The notes: a model not told the origin generated them from the sequence alone. A DNA stretch of 27,976 nt from Abditibacteriaceae bacterium (GCA_031372065.1 JANMKN010000071.1:1-27976), one strand, 5' to 3'. Counted from the first letter of the stretch, positions 2,558 to 26,616 are shown. Numbers and translations: made by a program.

Positions 2558-2872
2558 ATGAGCGAAGAAAAAAATGCCGTTCGCCTGACCGAAGACGAAG
2601 TCAATTACATCGCCAATTTATCGCGCTTGCATTTATCGCAGGCCGAGCGAGATCGCGCGGCGGGCGAACTGTCACAAATTCTGGATTCCTTTGAAAAGTT
2701 GAAAGAACTCGACACCGACGGCGTGGAGCCAACCGACCATGTTTTGCCGGTTGTCAACGTGCTGCGCGCCGATAAATCGCGGCCCGGCTTATCCACCGAA
2801 GCCGCCTTGCAAAACGCCCCCGAACAAGCCGCGAATATGTTCCAAGTGCCGCGTGTGGTGGAAGCCGAATGA
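2558..2872 (+). CDS. gatC: Asp-tRNA(Asn)/Glu-tRNA(Gln) amidotransferase subunit C
   Basis: 104 aa with IANLSRL, LKELDTDGVEPT, NVLRAD and FQVPRVVE; directly upstream of gatA. Confidence 0.96.
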   Translation: MSEEKNAVRLTEDEVNYIANLSRLHLSQAERDRAAGELSQILDSFEKLKELDTDGVEPTDHVLPVVNVLRADKSRPGLSTEAALQNAPEQAANMFQVPRVVEAE

Positions 2873-2942: not shown

Positions 2943-4406
2943 ATGTCCCTCATTGAACTCAGCGCCTATCAACTGGCGCAGCAGATTAAACAGAAAAAAA
3001 TGTCGTGCCGCGAAGTGACGGACGAATTTTTGCGGCGCATTGAACAAGTCGAAGAGCGCGTCAAAGCCTTCGTCACCGTGTTGCCCGAAGAAGCGCGCAA
3101 ACGCGCCGATGCCCTTGATCGCCGCGTCGCGTCGGGCGAAGATATTGGCGCTTTGGGCGGCGTGCCGGTGGCCGTCAAAGATTTGATTTGCACCAAAGGC
3201 ATTCGCACCACTTGCTCGTCGAAGATGCTCGAAAACTTTGTGCCGCCTTACGATGCGCACGTCGCCGAACGCCTCGCCGCCGATGGCGCCGTGATGATCG
3301 GCAAAGCCAACATGGACGAGTTTGCGATGGGCAGTTCGACAGAAAACTCGGCCTTTTTTCCAACGCGCAATCCGTGGGATTTAAATCGCGTGCCCGGCGG
3401 CAGTTCCGGCGGTTCCACCGCTGCCGTGGCCGCGCTCGAAGCGCCTTTAGCGCTTGGCTCCGACACCGGCGGCTCGATTCGTCAACCGGCAGCGTATTGC
3501 GGTTGCGTCGGCCTCAAACCAACTTACGGCCTCGTTTCGCGCTATGGCTTGATTGCCTTTGCGAGTTCGCTCGACCAAATTGGCCCGATTACCAACGATG
3601 TGCGCGACAGCGCGCTTTTGCTGCAAAGCATCGCCGGCCATGACCGGCGCGATTCAACTTCGATTAATCGTCCTTTGCCGAATTATCTGGACGCTTTAAC
3701 CGGCGATGTCAAAGGTTTGCGCATCGGCGTGCCCAAAGAATTTTTCGCGCAAGGCGTGGAAAGTTATGTCGTTGACGCCGTGCGCGCCGCGATTGATAAA
3801 TTATGCGAACTGGGCGCCGAAGCGGTGGAAGTTTCGATGCCAAGTGCCGAATATGCTTTAGCCACGTATTACATCATCGCGCCCAGCGAAGCGAGTTCCA
3901 ACTTGGCGAAATACGACGGCGTGCAATATGGTTTGCGCGTGGACGAAGCGGGTGACGACATCGTGGCGATGTATTCCAAATCGCGCGCGGCAGGCTTTGG
4001 TCACGAAGTGCAGCATCGCATTATGATTGGCACGCACGCGCTCAGTTCGGGCTTTTACGACGCGTATTATTTGAAAGCGCAAAAAGTGCGCACTTTAATT
4101 CGCCGCGACTTTGAACGGGCCTTTGAAAAGTGCGATATTTTAGCTACGCCGACCGCGCCCACAACGGCTTTTGAAATCGGCTCGAAAACGGATGACCCGT
4201 TTGCCATGAAATTGGCCGATGTTTGCACCATTCCCGTCAACATGGCCGGTCTGCCGGGCCTTTCGCTGCCTTGTGGCTTGCATCAAGGCTTGCCAATCGG
4301 CTTGCAACTAATTGGAAACCTGCTGGATGAAAGCACCATTCTGCGCGCCGCTCACGCCTATGAACAAGCGACAGCTTGGCACACGCAGCGCGCCGAACTG
4401 AAGTGA
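2943..4406 (+). CDS. gatA: Amidotransferase subunit A (amidase)
   Basis: Amidase signature: [44 protein letters not shown] 2943 preferred because the upstream extension is repeat-derived. Confidence 0.97.
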
Positions 4407-4430
4407 AATAAGGAGAGTGCTGACTGCCCT

Positions 4431-5531
4431 ATGCCTACCCAACACCTCGATACTCTTATGGAGTATTTTCAATGGCTTAACAAGGAAATCGCTGATAGAA
4501 ATGTCCGTAGCGAAAGTGATTTGTCGCGTGCTGTGGAAATCGGATTCAACAATGGGAAGTCACTGATGCGATTGTTAGGCTATTCGCGGGAGGATGTCAC
4601 GGAGCAATCACTCATCAAAGTTGGAACTACGAGTTTGAGGGTGGATTTTCGTGTCGGCAAACAGGAAAATAGCTGGCTGCTCGATTTGAAATTTCCGTGC
4701 GGAAAATTTAATTGCGAAAGTGCGGTGAATCAAATGAAGAGCTATCTACTCATCACCGGATTGCCTTTTGGCGTTCTTTTTGATGGTCGTAATGCTTGTG
4801 TCGTCATTTACTCAAATCACAGAGATTTAAGAAACTGGCGTGATTACGCAGATAAGGCTATTTGTGAGACACAGGTGGAGCAAGATGGAGATTGCCGAGA
4901 ACTAACAAAGTTTTTCAAGTTATTGCACGCGGACTTTTTGCAAAAAGAAAGTGGCGCAGTAGAAATCGCACGAAAAATGGCGAGAAAACAGCGCGACATA
5001 GATACAGCAAAGAAGCGTCACGACGAAATAATCGAGACGATCCAAGCGGCATTCCAAACTTCGACACAGGCCTTAGCCGTTCAATTGGCAGTGTTGCCTG
5101 AATTGAAGAACATTCACGCACAGCCACAGGAAGTGTTGGCCGCTCTGCGAACGCTGCATTTGGTTAAACGGCAGCCGACAAACACAGACCCTATAGGGAT
5201 AACAAACCCAACTCCGCCTCCACAGAACAAAATCAATCCGCAGATTCGCAGATTGATCGTCGAAATTTGCGAATCACACGACTTTGAATTTTTGCAAGCA
5301 CAACACATTCCCAAACTGAGAATAAGAACGGACGGCCATGTGGGAAATGGTTACATGGCTGTGACCGGTTCCGGTGTGCCCGAAGGGCTAACGGTTGGCG
5401 GAGTGGATAGGCCAACGGGATTAGAAATTATCCGACAATTAGAGCGAATTCAAGGTATGCCACCACAAACAATCACCAATCCGCCGCGTGGTGCGACGAA
5501 GTCCGGCAGGCGAACTGGTGCGCGCTCGTGA
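4431..5531 (+). CDS. Putative PD-(D/E)xK nuclease with HsdR N-terminal-like domain (accessory gene)
   Basis: N-terminal LGY...RVDF...LLDLK...QMKSY...FGVLFDG pattern resembles HSDR_N-type domains; more AT-rich and codon-atypical than gatA; AAGGAG upstream. Confidence 0.55.
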   Translation: MPTQHLDTLMEYFQWLNKEIADRNVRSESDLSRAVEIGFNNGKSLMRLLGYSREDVTEQSLIKVGTTSLRVDFRVGKQENSWLLDLKFPCGKFNCESAVNQMKSYLLITGLPFGVLFDGRNACVVIYSNHRDLRNWRDYADKAICETQVEQDGDCRELTKFFKLLHADFLQKESGAVEIARKMARKQRDIDTAKKRHDEIIETIQAAFQTSTQALAVQLAVLPELKNIHAQPQEVLAALRTLHLVKRQPTNTDPIGITNPTPPPQNKINPQIRRLIVEICESHDFEFLQAQHIPKLRIRTDGHVGNGYMAVTGSGVPEGLTVGGVDRPTGLEIIRQLERIQGMPPQTITNPPRGATKSGRRTGARS

Positions 5532-5546
5532 GGTGAAACAAGAATC

Positions 5547-5636
5547 ATGTCCAAATACGAAAGCACCCTTTTGCGCGCCGCGCACGCTTACGAACAGGCG
5601 ACAGAGTGGCACACACAACGCGCCGATTTAAAGTGA
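5547..5636 (+). pseudogene. Chimeric 29-codon mini-ORF: gatB head (MSKYE) fused to a gatA 3' tail copy
   Basis: Translates [29 protein letters not shown]. 5547-5562 matches gatB 8448-8463 at 15/16 nt; 5559-5637 matches gatA 4329-4407 at 66/79 nt. SD-like GAGGTGA at 5530-5536. Confidence 0.9.
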
Positions 5637-5692
5637 ATTTAAAAGGTTTCGCTCAACTGGCATATCCCAATCATCGAAACAGGAGAATTAAT

Positions 5693-7492
5693 ATGCAATC
5701 ATCAGTTCGTTGTCCGCTGGCCGCTGTGTCAGCCTTTATCCTGACCTGTCTCTTTACGACCGCTGTGTGTGGCCAAAACGCCACTGATGCCCAAGCCACC
5801 AAGCTTTTCGACCAAATGGACATTGGTGGGCTTTATAAGAACGAGATGCTTGACCTACAAGAGTTGAGTGGTGACAATCTTAAATGGTTGCAATACGACG
5901 CGAATTACAACAATTACGTTGAGAAAAGAGAGTTCTTGGCCGGCTACGCTAAAGGTGTGCCTCCACAGCGCGCGACGGATCAAGAAGCCTTAAACCTCTT
6001 TCGAAAACTTGACACCGATGGAGACGGGTATTTCTTCAACGACGCGGTTTATGCCAAATATCCAGCCTATGATATCGGTGGCGACAGGAGTATTTCAATC
6101 ACGGAATTCCTGAACGGTTACGCCAAAGAGCATACATCGCAAGGTCAAACGGCGCCCTCAGTTTCGCAGCCAACACCTCCGGCACCAACCGGCGCGCTGC
6201 CATGGAAAGCGGGCGATGCCGTCGAGTATTCATGGAACGGCAATTGGTATCCGGCCACGGTTTTAGGCGTGCAGGTTGGGCAATACCAGATTCATTACAA
6301 AGATTGGCCGGAGGGCCGCTTTGAGTTAGTTCCACCGGCGCGCGTTCGTCCACGGGCTGGACAGCCAATGCCCCAACCTGCCCAGCCCACCGCTTCTTTA
6401 CCGACAGCCTCGCAGCCAACGTTTCAGCCGGCAACTTCCGCTGCTGATAAGCAAAGGCGCATCGCCGAGTTGCAGAATTTAAACAAAGACCTTAAAGCCC
6501 TCATCGCCAAAATGGAGAATGATGCGGCGCTTCAAACCGCTGTTGAAAACCTTCGCCAGACAGTGGCCCGATATGAGCGCGATATTGAAAGCCTGCAAAA
6601 TCAAACCTCATTCCTGCCACCGTCCGGCCTGCCGCCATCCGGCAATGGCGGAATTCCAAGCAACAACGGCGGGAATAGCGCCTCTGGTCCGCTCAAAATC
6701 AACGACATTGTGGAATCGGCATCGCTGGGCCGTTGGGATAAGAGAAACATCTTTGCTGCGAGAATCATTGGCATTCAGGAGGATGAGCCGAAGTATAGGC
6801 TCCGCTCCTTCACCGGCGTTGATGGCTCGCGCGATTTTTACAACTACTCGCAAAATGTGCGTCGTCCGCAAAACGCGGTTTACGATGATTACGATCCGCG
6901 CCTGTTCATTGGCTCGTGGCAAATAGGCAGTAGCCACGCCAGTTCAACTACGGTCATCGGAGAGCGTGACACATCCATCGGCACCGAGGTTACTACCCAA
7001 ACCGAGCAGAGCGACTTAGCTTACACCAGGGCCTTGACCATCAACGGCGATAAAACCTACGTTTGGAAGCCAACGCCAACTCAAACCTTCAAAGGCCAGT
7101 GGGCCATATCGAATAACCCGGACTATCCGATCACCTTGCAGAAGGTAGGTGGCGCGGCGGATTGGGGTGTGGGCGCTCATGCCAGGCAAAACAGCGCTTA
7201 TAATTTGAGAGTTCACAATTTTGCTACCAGCCAAACCTTCTGGGGGCCACCAGTAGGCACAATGGTCTCGATTCCACCACTCATCGCCGCTCCAAAGGGT
7301 GCCGCCTCGGCTCCCGCATCTCGCTGGAAAAAAGGCGATAAAGTCGAATATAACATGGGTGTTACAGCTACCCCTTGGCGTAAGGTAACCATCCTTGATG
7401 TGGATAATGGCCAATACCAAATTCACTTTGATGGATCATCCTCTACCTGGGATATATGGGCTGATGAAGCCAGGCTTCGTGCCCGACAGTAA
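5693..7492 (+). CDS. Secreted multidomain protein: EF-hand-like loops, Tudor/Agenet-like (SH3-fold) repeats and a coiled coil
   Basis: AGGAG at 5681-5685 favours ATG 5693; signal-peptide-like N-terminus; loops DANYNNYVEKRE, DTDGDG and DIGGDRSISITE; repeats WKAGDAVEYSWNGNWYPATV...YQIHY and WKKGDKVEY...YQIHFDG. Confidence 0.7.
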   Translation: MQSSVRCPLAAVSAFILTCLFTTAVCGQNATDAQATKLFDQMDIGGLYKNEMLDLQELSGDNLKWLQYDANYNNYVEKREFLAGYAKGVPPQRATDQEALNLFRKLDTDGDGYFFNDAVYAKYPAYDIGGDRSISITEFLNGYAKEHTSQGQTAPSVSQPTPPAPTGALPWKAGDAVEYSWNGNWYPATVLGVQVGQYQIHYKDWPEGRFELVPPARVRPRAGQPMPQPAQPTASLPTASQPTFQPATSAADKQRRIAELQNLNKDLKALIAKMENDAALQTAVENLRQTVARYERDIESLQNQTSFLPPSGLPPSGNGGIPSNNGGNSASGPLKINDIVESASLGRWDKRNIFAARIIGIQEDEPKYRLRSFTGVDGSRDFYNYSQNVRRPQNAVYDDYDPRLFIGSWQIGSSHASSTTVIGERDTSIGTEVTTQTEQSDLAYTRALTINGDKTYVWKPTPTQTFKGQWAISNNPDYPITLQKVGGAADWGVGAHARQNSAYNLRVHNFATSQTFWGPPVGTMVSIPPLIAAPKGAASAPASRWKKGDKVEYNMGVTATPWRKVTILDVDNGQYQIHFDGSSSTWDIWADEARLRARQ

Positions 7493-7518
7493 GGGCGACT
7501 GAAAAGAACATTAAGCCT

Positions 7519-8139
7519 ATGGATGCCAGTGAAGCTGCCGAACAAATTGCCGAAGCGGGCGAGGGAGATAAATTTCGTGCTCGCGCCGCCTTGTGGATTG
7601 GCGTTTTGGCCCTGCTCATGGCCATTTCGGGCTTGGGTGGCGGCAATGCTGCCGAAGACATGGTGGCGGCCAACATCCACGCCAGCGACGCATGGGCGTT
7701 TTATCAAGCCAAAAATGTGCGCCAGACGGCCAATAAATTAGCCGCCGAGCAAATCGAAGCGCAACTGCTTTTGCAAGGCGATAAAGTCGCGCCCCAAACG
7801 CGCAAAATCATCGAAGGCAAAATCGCCAAGATGAAGGAAACAGCGGAGCGTTACGAAGACGAACCCGACAAAGAAGCGCCCAACGACCCGCTCAAAGGCG
7901 AAGGCAAAAAACAGTTGATGGCGCGGGCCAAAGATTTCGAAGCAGAGCGCGACCACGCGGGCGATCAGGACGTAAATTTCGATTTCGCCGATGTGTTTTT
8001 GCAAATCGCCGTCGTGTTGGGTTCGGTTGCCATTTTAGCCGTTTCACGCCCGATTTTGTTGATTTCTTTTGTCAGCGGCAGTTTCGGCGCTTTGCTGACG
8101 TTAAACGGATTTTTCCTGTGGTTCAAACTGCCGTTCTGA
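7519..8139 (+). CDS. DUF4337-family membrane protein
   Basis: 206 aa; N-terminal TM, ASDAWAFYQAKNVR motif, helical periplasmic region, two C-terminal TMs (FLQIAVVLGSVAIL). Confidence 0.75.
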   Translation: MDASEAAEQIAEAGEGDKFRARAALWIGVLALLMAISGLGGGNAAEDMVAANIHASDAWAFYQAKNVRQTANKLAAEQIEAQLLLQGDKVAPQTRKIIEGKIAKMKETAERYEDEPDKEAPNDPLKGEGKKQLMARAKDFEAERDHAGDQDVNFDFADVFLQIAVVLGSVAILAVSRPILLISFVSGSFGALLTLNGFFLWFKLPF

Positions 8140-8144
8140 GAAAT

Positions 8145-8444
8145 ATGGCGTTTCGACGAGACCATCAAGATCAGGAATGGACGCGTTGGCGCCGCGAATA
8201 CAATAATTTGATTATTGCGGCGCGTGTGCCGGAGTTCATCGTGGAATCGCGTCGGCATTGGTTGAGTTTTCTTGATAATGGATATTTGGAAGAATCCGGG
8301 CCTTCGCGTCAATTCAACTTCGATGTGCAAGGACTGCCAAATGACGAGCAAGAAACATTGTTACAACTCATCGAAACTTACCCCGATGGGCCTGAAAGTG
8401 AAGCCGCGCGGAGATTGCGCCAATCTTTGAAGGGCGCACATTAA
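8145..8444 (+). CDS. Hypothetical protein (99 aa)
   Basis: Fills the gap between the DUF4337 stop (8139) and the gatB start (8448); ATG at 8145 is in frame with the listed ORF. Confidence 0.7.
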   Translation: MAFRRDHQDQEWTRWRREYNNLIIAARVPEFIVESRRHWLSFLDNGYLEESGPSRQFNFDVQGLPNDEQETLLQLIETYPDGPESEAARRLRQSLKGAH

Positions 8445-8447
8445 GTT

Positions 8448-9899
8448 ATGTCCAAATATGAAATCGTCATCGGCATGGAGGTTCATGCCGAGCTTCTCAC
8501 CGAATCAAAACAATTTTGCGCTTGCCCGAATGTGGCGCTGGCGCCGCCGAACACGGCGGTTTGCCCGGTTTGTCTGGGCTTTCCCGGCTCGCTGCCGGTT
8601 CTCAACGAAAAAAGCGTCGAATTGTCGCTGCGCGCGGTGTTGGCATTCGCGTCGAAAATCAACACCAAATGCATCTTTGAGCGCAAGAATTATTTTTATC
8701 CCGATTTGCCCAAGGCTTATCAAATTTCGCAGCGCCTTTTGCCGCTCGGCGAAGGCGGCTTCATCGAAATTGACCTGCCCAATGGCGATGTGAAGCGCGT
8801 GGGGATGCACGACATTCACATGGAAGAAGACACCGGCAAAAGTCAGCACGGCGAAGCGATTGGCGACCCCGATTCGAGCCTTGTGGACTTTAATCGCAGC
8901 GGCATTCCGCTTTTGGAATTGGTTTCGCTGCCCGATATGCGCTCGATTGAAGAAGCCGAAGCCTACATGATGGCGCTGCGCCAACTTTTGCTTTATTTGG
9001 AAGTTAGCGATTGCAAAATGGAGCAGGGGCGCCTACGTTTTGAGGCCAGCGTTTCGCTGCGTCCGCACGGCCAAAGCGAACTGGGCACGCGCGTCGAAGT
9101 GAAAAATCTCAACTCGATGAAATCGGTTTCCAACAGCCTCAAAGCCGAAATCGCGCGGCAGGAAAAAATTCTCGATTCCGGCGGCGTCGTGCAGCAAATG
9201 ACGATGTTGTGGGACGAAGCCAGCGGCACCACGCAGCCGATGCGCTCCAAAGAACAAGCACACGATTATCGTTATTTCCCCGAACCCGATTTGGTGCCGT
9301 TGGACATTGATGAGGCGTGGCTGGGGCGCGTGCAGGAAGCGATGCCCGAATTGCCGCGCGCCCGAAAAATGCGCTTTCAAGAATCGCTTGGCCTTTCGCC
9401 TTATGATGCCGAAGTTTTAACGACAACGCGCGAAATCGCCGATTATTACGAAAGTGCCATTGATGGCTACGACAAGCCAAAGGCCATCGCCAACTGGCTG
9501 GCGAACGAGCTTTTGGGACGATTGAATGCTGGGGCAAAAACCATTTCCGAATCGCCCGTCGCGCCCAATCAATTACGCGATTTACTGAAACTGATTGATT
9601 CCGGCGCCATTAGCGGCAAGCAGGCCAAAGAAGTCTTCGATGAAATGGTCGCTTCCGGCCAAGACGCGGGTGCGATTGTCAAAGCCAAAGGCATTGAGCA
9701 AATCAGCGATACCGGCGAACTCGAAGCCATTTGCCGCCGCGTTTTGGAAAACAACGCGCAAGCCGTGCAGGACTTTTTGGGCGGCAAGGAAAAATCCTTC
9801 GGTTCGCTGGTCGGCGGCGTGATGAAAGAATCGAAGGGCAAAGCGAACCCGGCGCTTGTGAACACGCTTTTGCGCGAAATTTTGCAAAGCATGAAATAG
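8448..9899 (+). CDS. gatB: Amidotransferase subunit B
   Basis: VIGMEVHAEL, CPVCLGFPGSLP, RKNYFYPDLPKAYQISQ, HMEEDTGK, DYRYFPEPDL and a C-terminal YqeY-like domain. Confidence 0.98.
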   Translation: MSKYEIVIGMEVHAELLTESKQFCACPNVALAPPNTAVCPVCLGFPGSLPVLNEKSVELSLRAVLAFASKINTKCIFERKNYFYPDLPKAYQISQRLLPLGEGGFIEIDLPNGDVKRVGMHDIHMEEDTGKSQHGEAIGDPDSSLVDFNRSGIPLLELVSLPDMRSIEEAEAYMMALRQLLLYLEVSDCKMEQGRLRFEASVSLRPHGQSELGTRVEVKNLNSMKSVSNSLKAEIARQEKILDSGGVVQQMTMLWDEASGTTQPMRSKEQAHDYRYFPEPDLVPLDIDEAWLGRVQEAMPELPRARKMRFQESLGLSPYDAEVLTTTREIADYYESAIDGYDKPKAIANWLANELLGRLNAGAKTISESPVAPNQLRDLLKLIDSGAISGKQAKEVFDEMVASGQDAGAIVKAKGIEQISDTGELEAICRRVLENNAQAVQDFLGGKEKSFGSLVGGVMKESKGKANPALVNTLLREILQSMK

Positions 9900-9902
9900 G
9901 AA

Positions 9903-9998
9903 ATAGAACGCAAATTTACGCGAGTTTTCGCAAATATACGCAAATTTTTCAAAAAGATTTGCGAAAATTCGCGTCACTTTGCGTGATTTGCGTTCTAT
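9903..9998. repeat. Imperfect palindromic element made of about 9-nt CGCAAAT-type units
   Basis: ATAGAACGCAAAT (9903-9915) pairs with ATTTGCGTTCTAT (9986-9998); inner arms 9918-9935 and 9957-9974. Confidence 0.8.
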
Positions 9999-10003
9999 AA
10001 AAA

Positions 10004-23242: not shown

Positions 23243-23273
23243 TTATTATCGGAAGCAAACGCTATATTAGCGG

Positions 23274-23727
23274 TCAAAAGCCCCTGACGAGGACTCGTCA
23301 GGGGCTTTTGACGCTCGAAAGGTGCTGACGAGCGCTCGTCAGCACCTTTCGACGCTCGTTTGGTGTTGACGAGGACTCGTCGGGTGCTTTCGACGCTCGT
23401 TTAGTGCCGACGAGCGCTCGTCAGCATCTTTTAAGGCTCGTTTGGTGCCGACGAGGACTCGTCAGCACCTTTTAAGCCTCGTTTAGTGTTGACGAGCGCT
23501 CGTCAGGGGCTTTTTGCTGCTCGAAAGCTGTTGTCACAGGCGTGAGAACGACTTTCGAGCGTCAAAAAGCACCTGTCACAGGCGTGAGAATGACTTTTAA
23601 GCGTCAAAAGCTGTTCTCACAGGCGTGAGAATGACTTTTGAGCAGCAAAAAGCACCTGTCACAAGCGTGAGAATGACTTTTAAGCATCAAAAGCTGTTCT
23701 CACGCCCGTGTCAGGTGCTTTTTGCGC
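23274..23727. repeat. Tandem array of eleven 41-42-bp palindromic units in two sub-blocks
   Basis: Units start at 23274, 23315, 23356, 23397, 23438 and 23479 (core GACGAG-NN-CTCGTC), then 23521, 23562, 23604, 23645 and 23687 (core TCAC-NNNN-GTG). No unique spacers. Confidence 0.95.
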
Positions 23728-23760
23728 TCGATTAGCGTCAATCAGATGGTTTTTTACGAT

Positions 23761-26540: not shown

Positions 26541-26616
26541 TGAACAGTGGTCGGTGGTCGGTAACAGCCACTGCCCACTGCCCACTGCCCACTGCCCACT
26601 GCCCACCGCTCACTGA
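26531..26616. repeat. Heptamer tandem repeat with a complementary arm (CCACTGC x5)
   Basis: Five exact CCACTGC (26568-26602) plus two degenerate copies; upstream CAGTGGT-type complementary heptamers at 26531-26560. Confidence 0.9.

Follow-up and report, generated by a model that had tools for sequence, protein, structure and literature searches.

Islands and integrons that depend on an integrase restore the 3' end of the gene they enter, so that a displaced 3' fragment lies beyond the insert, and new members join their arrays at the front. The class named insertion with long target duplication (Furuta, Abe and Kobayashi 2010, PMC2853133) comprises an insert of <20 kb between direct repeats of >30 bp, without other mobile genes and with an empty site in relatives; the repeats often span a start or a stop and the target gene survives, the inserts are restriction-modification genes, and the repeats given in its Table 2 are near-identical (44-47 of 45-47). 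Homology-facilitated illegitimate recombination (HFIR) is predicted to delete recipient DNA, and the duplications observed in that setting are ascribed to single crossovers with trimmed circles (PMC3240628). In T6SS/Rhs arrays a new module enters at the front while older material and the 3' end of the previous gene are pushed back, a displacement proposed to be HFIR-like, without integrase evidence (Kirchberger 2017, PMC5361080). In MGE-less hotspots, exchange proceeds through a double crossover within the core genes on either side (Oliveira 2017, PMC5635113); we group the minimal mobile elements of Neisseria (cited in PMC2952849) with these hotspots.

The locus described here lies in a window of 27,976 nt (the whole stretch of DNA that was analysed), which is contig C208 of G000, a metagenome assembly of 6.14 Mb in 410 contigs that is 93.9% complete; among named organisms, its nearest gatA relatives belong to the Abditibacteriaceae. 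The features of the gatCAB region are as follows.

2558..2872, plus strand: gatC (Pfam GatC, 1.8e-22)
2943..4406, plus strand: gatA, intact, 487 aa (Pfam Amidase); 3' part likely donor-derived
4329..4407, plus strand: working gatA tail (copy 1), probably the incoming allele, from repeat alignment and derived states
4431..5531, plus strand: cargo 1, 366 aa, 47% GC, with a weakly restriction-endonuclease-like N-terminus
5530..5536, plus strand: putative SD-like GAGGTGA, from sequence, overlapping the cargo 1 stop
5547..5562, plus strand: gatB head, 16 nt, probably from the donor (15/16 against resident gatB)
5547..5636, plus strand: chimeric ORF, MSKYE plus gatA tail, 29 codons and a stop, with the gatB head in frame with the displaced tail
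5559..5562, plus strand: joint microhomology GAAA, common to gatB head and gatA tail
5559..5637, plus strand: displaced gatA tail (copy 2), probably the original gene end, from repeat alignment and relatives
5693..7492, plus strand: cargo 2, 599 aa, with weak EF-hand and Agenet/Tudor matches, all below cut-off
7519..8139, plus strand: cargo 3, DUF4337, an older resident, as it precedes gatB in relatives
8145..8444, plus strand: cargo 4, 99 aa, without a family, 63% to the gene preceding gatB in G003
8448..9899, plus strand: gatB, intact (Pfam GatB_N and GatB_Yqey)

The two gatA tails form ungapped direct repeats of 79 nt (4329-4407 and 5559-5637) that lie 1230 bp apart, flank an insert of 1152 nt and are identical at 66/79 positions. 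Their similarity ends sharply at both edges and their longest identical run is 10 nt; 9/13 differences are synonymous, the amino-acid changes being I>L, A>E and E>D. Positions 5547-5562, at the start of the second repeat, match the gatB start (8448-8463) at 15/16 positions (TAC vs TAT), for which the chance at a fixed place is p of about 1e-8, and the 20 nt ending at 5562 equal the gatB start region of G003. The gatB head and the displaced tail have GAAA in common at the joint; had GAC preceded GAA in the old gatA, as it does in G002 and five more among the 19 relatives, the microhomology would begin at 5557 and measure 6 nt. The repeat, its spacing, identity and substitutions and the gatB-head match, all of them first described in a sequence-only reading of the window, were reproduced exactly; the claim that the joint sits at a microhomology was borne out (GAAA, 4-6 nt), and the proposed origin of the incoming piece in a gatA-cargo 1-gatB chromosome is supported. 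Microhomology could be read at the gatA junction only, because both parents are known only there, and no further copy of the gatA tail was found in the G000 assembly.

Because contigs from two samples cross the joint with 0 differences, the alternative raised in the same reading, a misassembly of two strains at 5559-5562, is so improbable as to be almost negligible, even for a metagenome assembly of 410 contigs. Run X1 (possibly the source run) has a single contig of 4749 nt that spans 3962-8710, and run X2, from a different sample in that study, has one that spans 5429-5998; about 30 loci of the genome, and relatives too, show like architecture. None of the 13 joints listed skipped the 1230-bp unit, although contigs drop rare forms and these joints are thus no evidence on excision or a circle.

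As in insertion with long target duplication, the locus has long repeats (79 nt), an insert under 20 kb (1152 nt) with no other mobile genes and an intact gene. Empty sites were clear at metH, ackA and nuoI, and none was seen for gatA with cargo 2 behind it. The scars differ from that class in having varied cargo with no RM pair and diverged repeats (median 86%) that end at the stop, and in being stacked and spread over about 30 genes of a single genome. The short-homology joint at gatA and the lack of an integrase agree with HFIR, whose single homologous anchor may be present as well (a 93% vs 86% step against G002, with clearly replaced gatA ends in G001 and G003), but the scar joint falls inside the anchor gene, and the end of the recipient DNA at the scars was kept and duplicated rather than deleted. 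Displaced 3' ends stacked behind the newest module (three each at C67 and C203) recall the T6SS/Rhs arrays; those are confined to effector-immunity loci, whereas the hosts here are ordinary genes (gatA, metH, nuoI-like, ackA, rluD-like, sulfatase, DUF1501/DUF1552), and immunity-type domains occurred in the cargo of only 2/25 other loci. Variable cargo between conserved genes with recombinant flanks is likewise a property of the MGE-less hotspots, which the gatA-gatB interval fits; there, however, double crossover swaps cargo and leaves no repeat, while the tail scar is an addition. Unlike integrase islands and integrons, the scar inserts have no integrase, fixed crossover, att or attC motif. 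No genome-wide account of displaced or diverged gene tails, nor any account from Abditibacteriaceae, was found in the part of the literature covered, and the supplementary figures of Furuta et al. may show similar cases.

It is more fitting to count the gatA feature among some 30 gene-tail insertions spread over the genome. Gene calling used a purpose-built hexamer model, which gave 4849 genes and overlooks AT-rich cargo, cargo 1 among it, and the 3640 genes of >=150 codons were scanned for gene segments recurring within 5 kb, outside paralogues, with a score of >=18. A downstream same-strand copy of the tail, behind one to three inserted genes, was detected in 29/3640 genes of G000, of which 3 (C23, C147 and the first gene of C343) were doubtful on inspection; the controls gave 0 for mid-gene segments downstream, 0 for mid-gene segments upstream, 1 for tails upstream, 5 for heads upstream, 2 for heads downstream, and 3 and 3 on the opposite strand. 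In an unanchored scan, gene-end copies lay downstream in 33 genes and upstream in 1, and gene-start copies upstream in 11 genes and downstream in 7, with about a dozen near-end cases; several of the unanchored cases held up by eye. Head duplications that mirror the tail scars are present in G000, and tails may outnumber them since a gene that follows a stop codon could be read from the host promoter. The 33 anchored pairs had a median length of 46 nt (20-180), a median identity of 86% and a median spacing of 804 bp. Hosts, named from Pfam matches, include metH, a nuoI-like 4Fe-4S gene, ackA, an rluD-like gene, a sulfatase, a sigma-54 regulator and DUF1501/DUF1552 genes, and the cargo includes SoFic, IetAS, SMI1/KNR4, Imm5, a Y1 transposase and many ORFans.

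Three displaced tails each were stacked at the C67 and C203 genes (53/65/42 and 43/27/33 nt). Because the stacked tails differ in length, stacking is real and lacks a fixed crossover; thus the stacking proposed for this locus from sequence holds at two other genes, but not as a gatCAB system. A rescan of G000 in 20-kb pieces returned 28/3981 genes. Among arbitrarily chosen samples of other genomes, G003 gave 5/253 (4 convincing) and G005 2/115 (1 convincing), with 0/146 in G002, 0/132 in G012 and 0/150 in G011. The gatA neighbourhoods contained 1/218 such genes in the family and 1/640 and 0/564 in other taxa; the excess in the family, taken over sets that were unmatched, was weak (5/796 vs 1/1204, p=0.04).

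The gatA-gatB interval is indeed hypervariable in relatives, as had been predicted: in the 19 family genomes with gatA and gatB on one fetched stretch the gap ranged from 41 to 10,465 bp and exceeded 400 bp in 16/19, while outside the family it exceeded 400 bp in 7/60 loci holding both genes (135 loci examined). Cargo 3 precedes gatB in G001, G002 and G008, and in run X4, from a related strain, cargo 3 is present and a contig joins 8139 to 8446, skipping cargo 4. Because cargo 3 and cargo 4 precede gatB in relatives and in view of X4, the block behind the displaced tail is the older one and cargo 1 the newcomer. No homologue of cargo 2 was present in the intervals of the 19 relatives. The idea of a gatCAB-specific mechanism with a recurring crossover fared less well, since the joint pattern had an exact match in 1/401 phylum genomes, G000 itself; with 1-2 mismatches it occurred in 14 phylum genomes, vs 17 for the reversed control. 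A second gatA tail or gatB head was absent from the 19 assembled family intervals, as was a displaced gatA tail from 80 metagenome and 80 GTDB gatA loci, many of them short. Only G000 and G024, among 31 class genomes, had two gatA-type ends, and G024, in which these ends are 89% identical over at least 213 nt and lie on unlinked contigs, is a candidate second case. A second gatA match in G017 proved to be a different amidase. Neither a donor with the order gatA-cargo 1-gatB nor an empty gatA site with cargo 2 directly behind was found in this search, clear empty sites being confined to metH, ackA and nuoI.

These three empty sites indicate which tail is the older. At metH, G001 and G002 become similar again where the displaced tail begins and remain so for 1.5 kb; at nuoI, the flank in G001 and G003 matches for 21-25 nt past the displaced stop; at ackA, the G002 gene adjoins sequence found 3' of the displaced tail. 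The displaced tail is therefore the old gene end. A clear empty site was obtained at 3/9 loci compared, the other 6 being uninformative; none was seen at the DUF1552, rluD-like, peptidase S9, aldehyde dehydrogenase and DUF444 loci, and no match to the C203 host was present in 26 family genomes, which leaves the C203 stack without polarity.

The differences between the tails are not those of a copy that was made locally and then left to decay. Over the 33 pairs they were distributed over codon positions as 66/41/140, where decay of a local copy would give 69/66/112 (p=2.6e-4). When 1-3 relatives were used to polarise 11 pairs at 9 loci (14 sites ambiguous), the derived changes were 28 synonymous and 9 non-synonymous in working tails vs 22 and 28 in displaced tails (Fisher p=0.004), so that displaced tails hold allelic divergence together with later decay. 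The working tail of the DUF1552 gene shares its serine codon state with G003, and all three displaced tails share theirs with G002. The codon-position bias shows that divergence between the two tails took place for the most part while both were working alleles; the sequence-only reading had claimed as much for gatA, and to it must be added the further decay of the displaced copies. A local target duplication at insertion, for example at a nuclease cut (a route proposed for restriction-modification genes), followed by decay of the dead copy would fit the class of insertion with long target duplication (PMC2853133), and would agree with the observed decay and with the restriction-endonuclease-like N-terminus of cargo 1 (HSDR_N_2, E=5e-4, under the curated cut-off). 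We regard it as highly improbable: pure decay is rejected by the codon-position bias, the working gatA copy has 11/13 derived states, the gatB head at the joint requires a gatA-cargo 1-gatB donor, and no methyltransferase was present among the scanned cargo. Cargo 1 had one other homologue (41%), was found in 0/18 family genomes and gave no PADLOC match.

The identity of gatA to G002 was 93% over the first 480 nt compared and 86% over the next 929 nt (p=2e-4), a step that does not tell which lineage changed and that was not seen against five other genomes; the lower identity reaches about 900 nt upstream of the repeat. Over the last 200 nt of gatA, identity to G000 fell to 68% in G001 and 65% in G003, the values for the body being 83% and 82%; neither four other genomes tested nor other genera showed this fall. 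Because of this drop in G001 and G003, we infer that gatA ends have been replaced repeatedly at the gatA-gatB spot. Copy 2 was nearer than copy 1 to 13/19 relatives, with the reverse in 4 and ties in 2. Polarised against three genus relatives, copy 1 had the derived state at 11/13 sites, and the displaced tail had the relatives' state from the 10th base onward; G002 alone barely separates the two (copy 1 64, copy 2 65 of 78).

The account that we favour, at slightly better than even confidence, is a tail scar left by a one-ended homologous crossover in gatA and a microhomology join. DNA of a related bacterium, comprising the 3' part of gatA, cargo 1 and the start of gatB, would pair with gatA; a homologous crossover inside the gatA body would take place at one end of the incoming DNA, and the far end would be rejoined to gatA, 79 bases ahead of its stop, through a microhomology of 4-6 bases. 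The incoming DNA would thereby supply the new gene end, and the old end and all behind it would be pushed downstream with the gene intact; repeated events would build arrays without an integrase or a fixed site, for which the T6SS/Rhs arrays are a precedent (PMC5361080). Recombination may then remove long near-identical duplicates, or deletion trim them, so that short tails and tight joints survive, trimming being our assumption for the cause of the tight joints. Natural transformation may have been the route of entry, ComEC, which is present in G000, being the one indication of it; Ku was not found in G000.

The same layout would result if a donor segment of gatA tail, cargo 1 and gatB head had been closed into a circle at the microhomology and had entered by one crossover in the gatA tail. 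Trimmed and re-circularised DNA is reported to have produced, by single crossovers, duplications of 109-950 bp in E. coli (PMC3240628), and excision would in principle be possible via the direct repeats. The tails are identical over 10 nt at most, however, the crossover would be confined to the first 9 nt since the displaced tail matches relatives from base 10, the reduced identity to G002 extends far beyond the repeat (about 900 nt upstream), and the joint did not recur in 400 other genomes. Because of the 10-nt identity run and the 9 nt left for a crossover, the circle fits gatA less well; with polarity also taken into account, the 1230-bp circle integrating in the 79-nt tail that had been suggested for this locus is the weaker reading, unlikely but deserving some weight.

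Quite unlikely, in our judgement, is a history in two steps, in which a large tandem duplication (gatA-cargo 1-gatB...gatA-cargo 2-gatB) came first and a deletion at the microhomology, with its ends at gatB +16 and gatA -79, collapsed it later. It would account for the two-fragment joint and for the tight joints throughout the genome, transformation makes merodiploids in S. pneumoniae (PMC3784515), and the two gatA ends of G024 on unlinked contigs, 89% identical, could be such a case; but the near-identical tail pairs are already short (20-67 nt), the 33 anchored pairs include no long-duplicate intermediates, and tail length and identity are uncorrelated (rho -0.29, p=0.11).

The tight joints, for which selection and trimming may account under the one-ended crossover, speak for a dedicated host process. 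Inserts ended <=30 nt from the stop of their last ORF in 16/25 cases in which that ORF had the direction of the host, where landing at random would give roughly 2% (30 nt out of 1267 nt per gene), and tight joints occurred even in near-identical tail pairs. A process that targets gene ends (coupled, for example, to translation or transcription termination, or to REP/RAYT) and moves units of a tail and a whole ORF would explain this, as well as the large excess of tails over heads, and one Y1 transposase among the cargo and two inserts made up of palindrome arrays alone could be its traces. We nevertheless hold it to be improbable, since there is no junction motif (no 4- or 5-mer was enriched at 31 junctions), 24/31 inserts are without multi-copy repeats, part of the cargo lies on the strand opposite to the host, and mirror-image head duplications exist. 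REP/RAYT as a general driver was rejected, multi-copy repeats being present in 7/31 inserts only. Sites resembling attC were present at 0/31 junctions. No integrase families were found among 27 window proteins scanned, and no integrase among 78 host, cargo and flanking proteins, so that the absence of an integrase first noted for the window extends to the inserts; G000 had 11 tyrosine-recombinase matches, none on the window contig, and in the genome-wide search, which covered tyrosine recombinases, such an enzyme shared a contig with 1 of 33 anchored pairs, 10 kb away. The head of a downstream gene fused to the tail of an upstream one, which the sequence-only reading had proposed to seek elsewhere in the genome, was restricted to gatA: in 50/51 junctions scored (one was too short) only gatA reached 13, the next best reaching 10.

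The gatA scar is part of a genome-wide recombination signature, not a gatCAB system. Many variable spots in genomes lack an integrase, and gene addition there, as opposed to swapping, is poorly documented; in place of single anecdotes, about 30 readable events with controls, polarity, allele signatures and stacks provide a signature that can be counted and for which any genome may be searched. It is tempting, though rather unlikely, to go further and see in these scars an integrase-free cassette system, in which the last 20-200 bases of any gene would serve as attachment site and units of a tail and a whole ORF, cut just after the cargo stop, would pass from relative to relative and pile up like integron cassettes behind dozens of genes; the joint at gatA, which lies 16 bases into gatB, would then be the one case that shows both parents. 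If the tight joints prove mechanistic rather than trimmed, they would define a new kind of mobile cassette. Such scars would in any event offer defence, toxin-antitoxin and orphan genes a route into the operons of essential genes while replacing the C-terminus of the host protein.

Stacks of three displaced tails, the diverged copies of a gene's 3' end found downstream of inserted cargo and presumed to be its old end, were seen in the genome containing the window (G000) at contig C67 15398-16883 (L066) and on C203 (L077), where the host gene, an S24 peptidase gene, had no match among 26 family genomes. Displaced tails were also found in relatives, at L343 (G003:C235, where 20 kb holds three) and L362 (G005:C40), and at further loci L262 and L300; the Lyngbya record in this set has one.

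At gatA of the related genomes G001 (C487, L053) and G003 (C164, L031), the last ~240 nt are far more diverged than the gene body, and the G001 3' end is AT-richer and followed by AT-rich DNA. No displaced tail was seen at either 3' end, and we infer that both are replaced ends. Relative G024 carries two gatA ends (89% identity across 213 nt) on unlinked contigs C152 (L052) and C402 (L051), with cargo and gatB behind one and a presumably XisH-like gene behind the other.

Four G000 loci carry the mirror image of the tail scars, namely gene-start copies lying 1-5.5 kb upstream of their own gene.

Gene-start copies in G000
C225 16072-16255: 183 nt, ~90% identity
C305 11176-11246: 70/70 identical
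C181 950-991: 41/41 identical
C172 35741-35773: 32 nt

At window positions 23245-23728, 2873-2933 and 9908-9984 lie intergenic hairpins and an array built from palindromic units 41-42 nt long. G003 contains many relatives of the 2873-2933 hairpin, and a strain in metagenome run X4 has 118 other bases in place of window spacer 9897-9999. A 14-nt unit occurs in three to four head-to-tail copies at 26568-26616, flanked on each side by an ABC-transporter gene.

Among the inserts at G000 contigs C94 (L068), C286 (L084) and C118 (L070) are palindromic repeat arrays alone (147 and 278 nt), flanked by 20-30-nt tail duplications, and one cargo in this group is a Y1 (RAYT-like) transposase with hairpins. 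The defence genes IetAS and SoFic sit as cargo between tail duplications on G000 C157 (L074) and C90 (L067).
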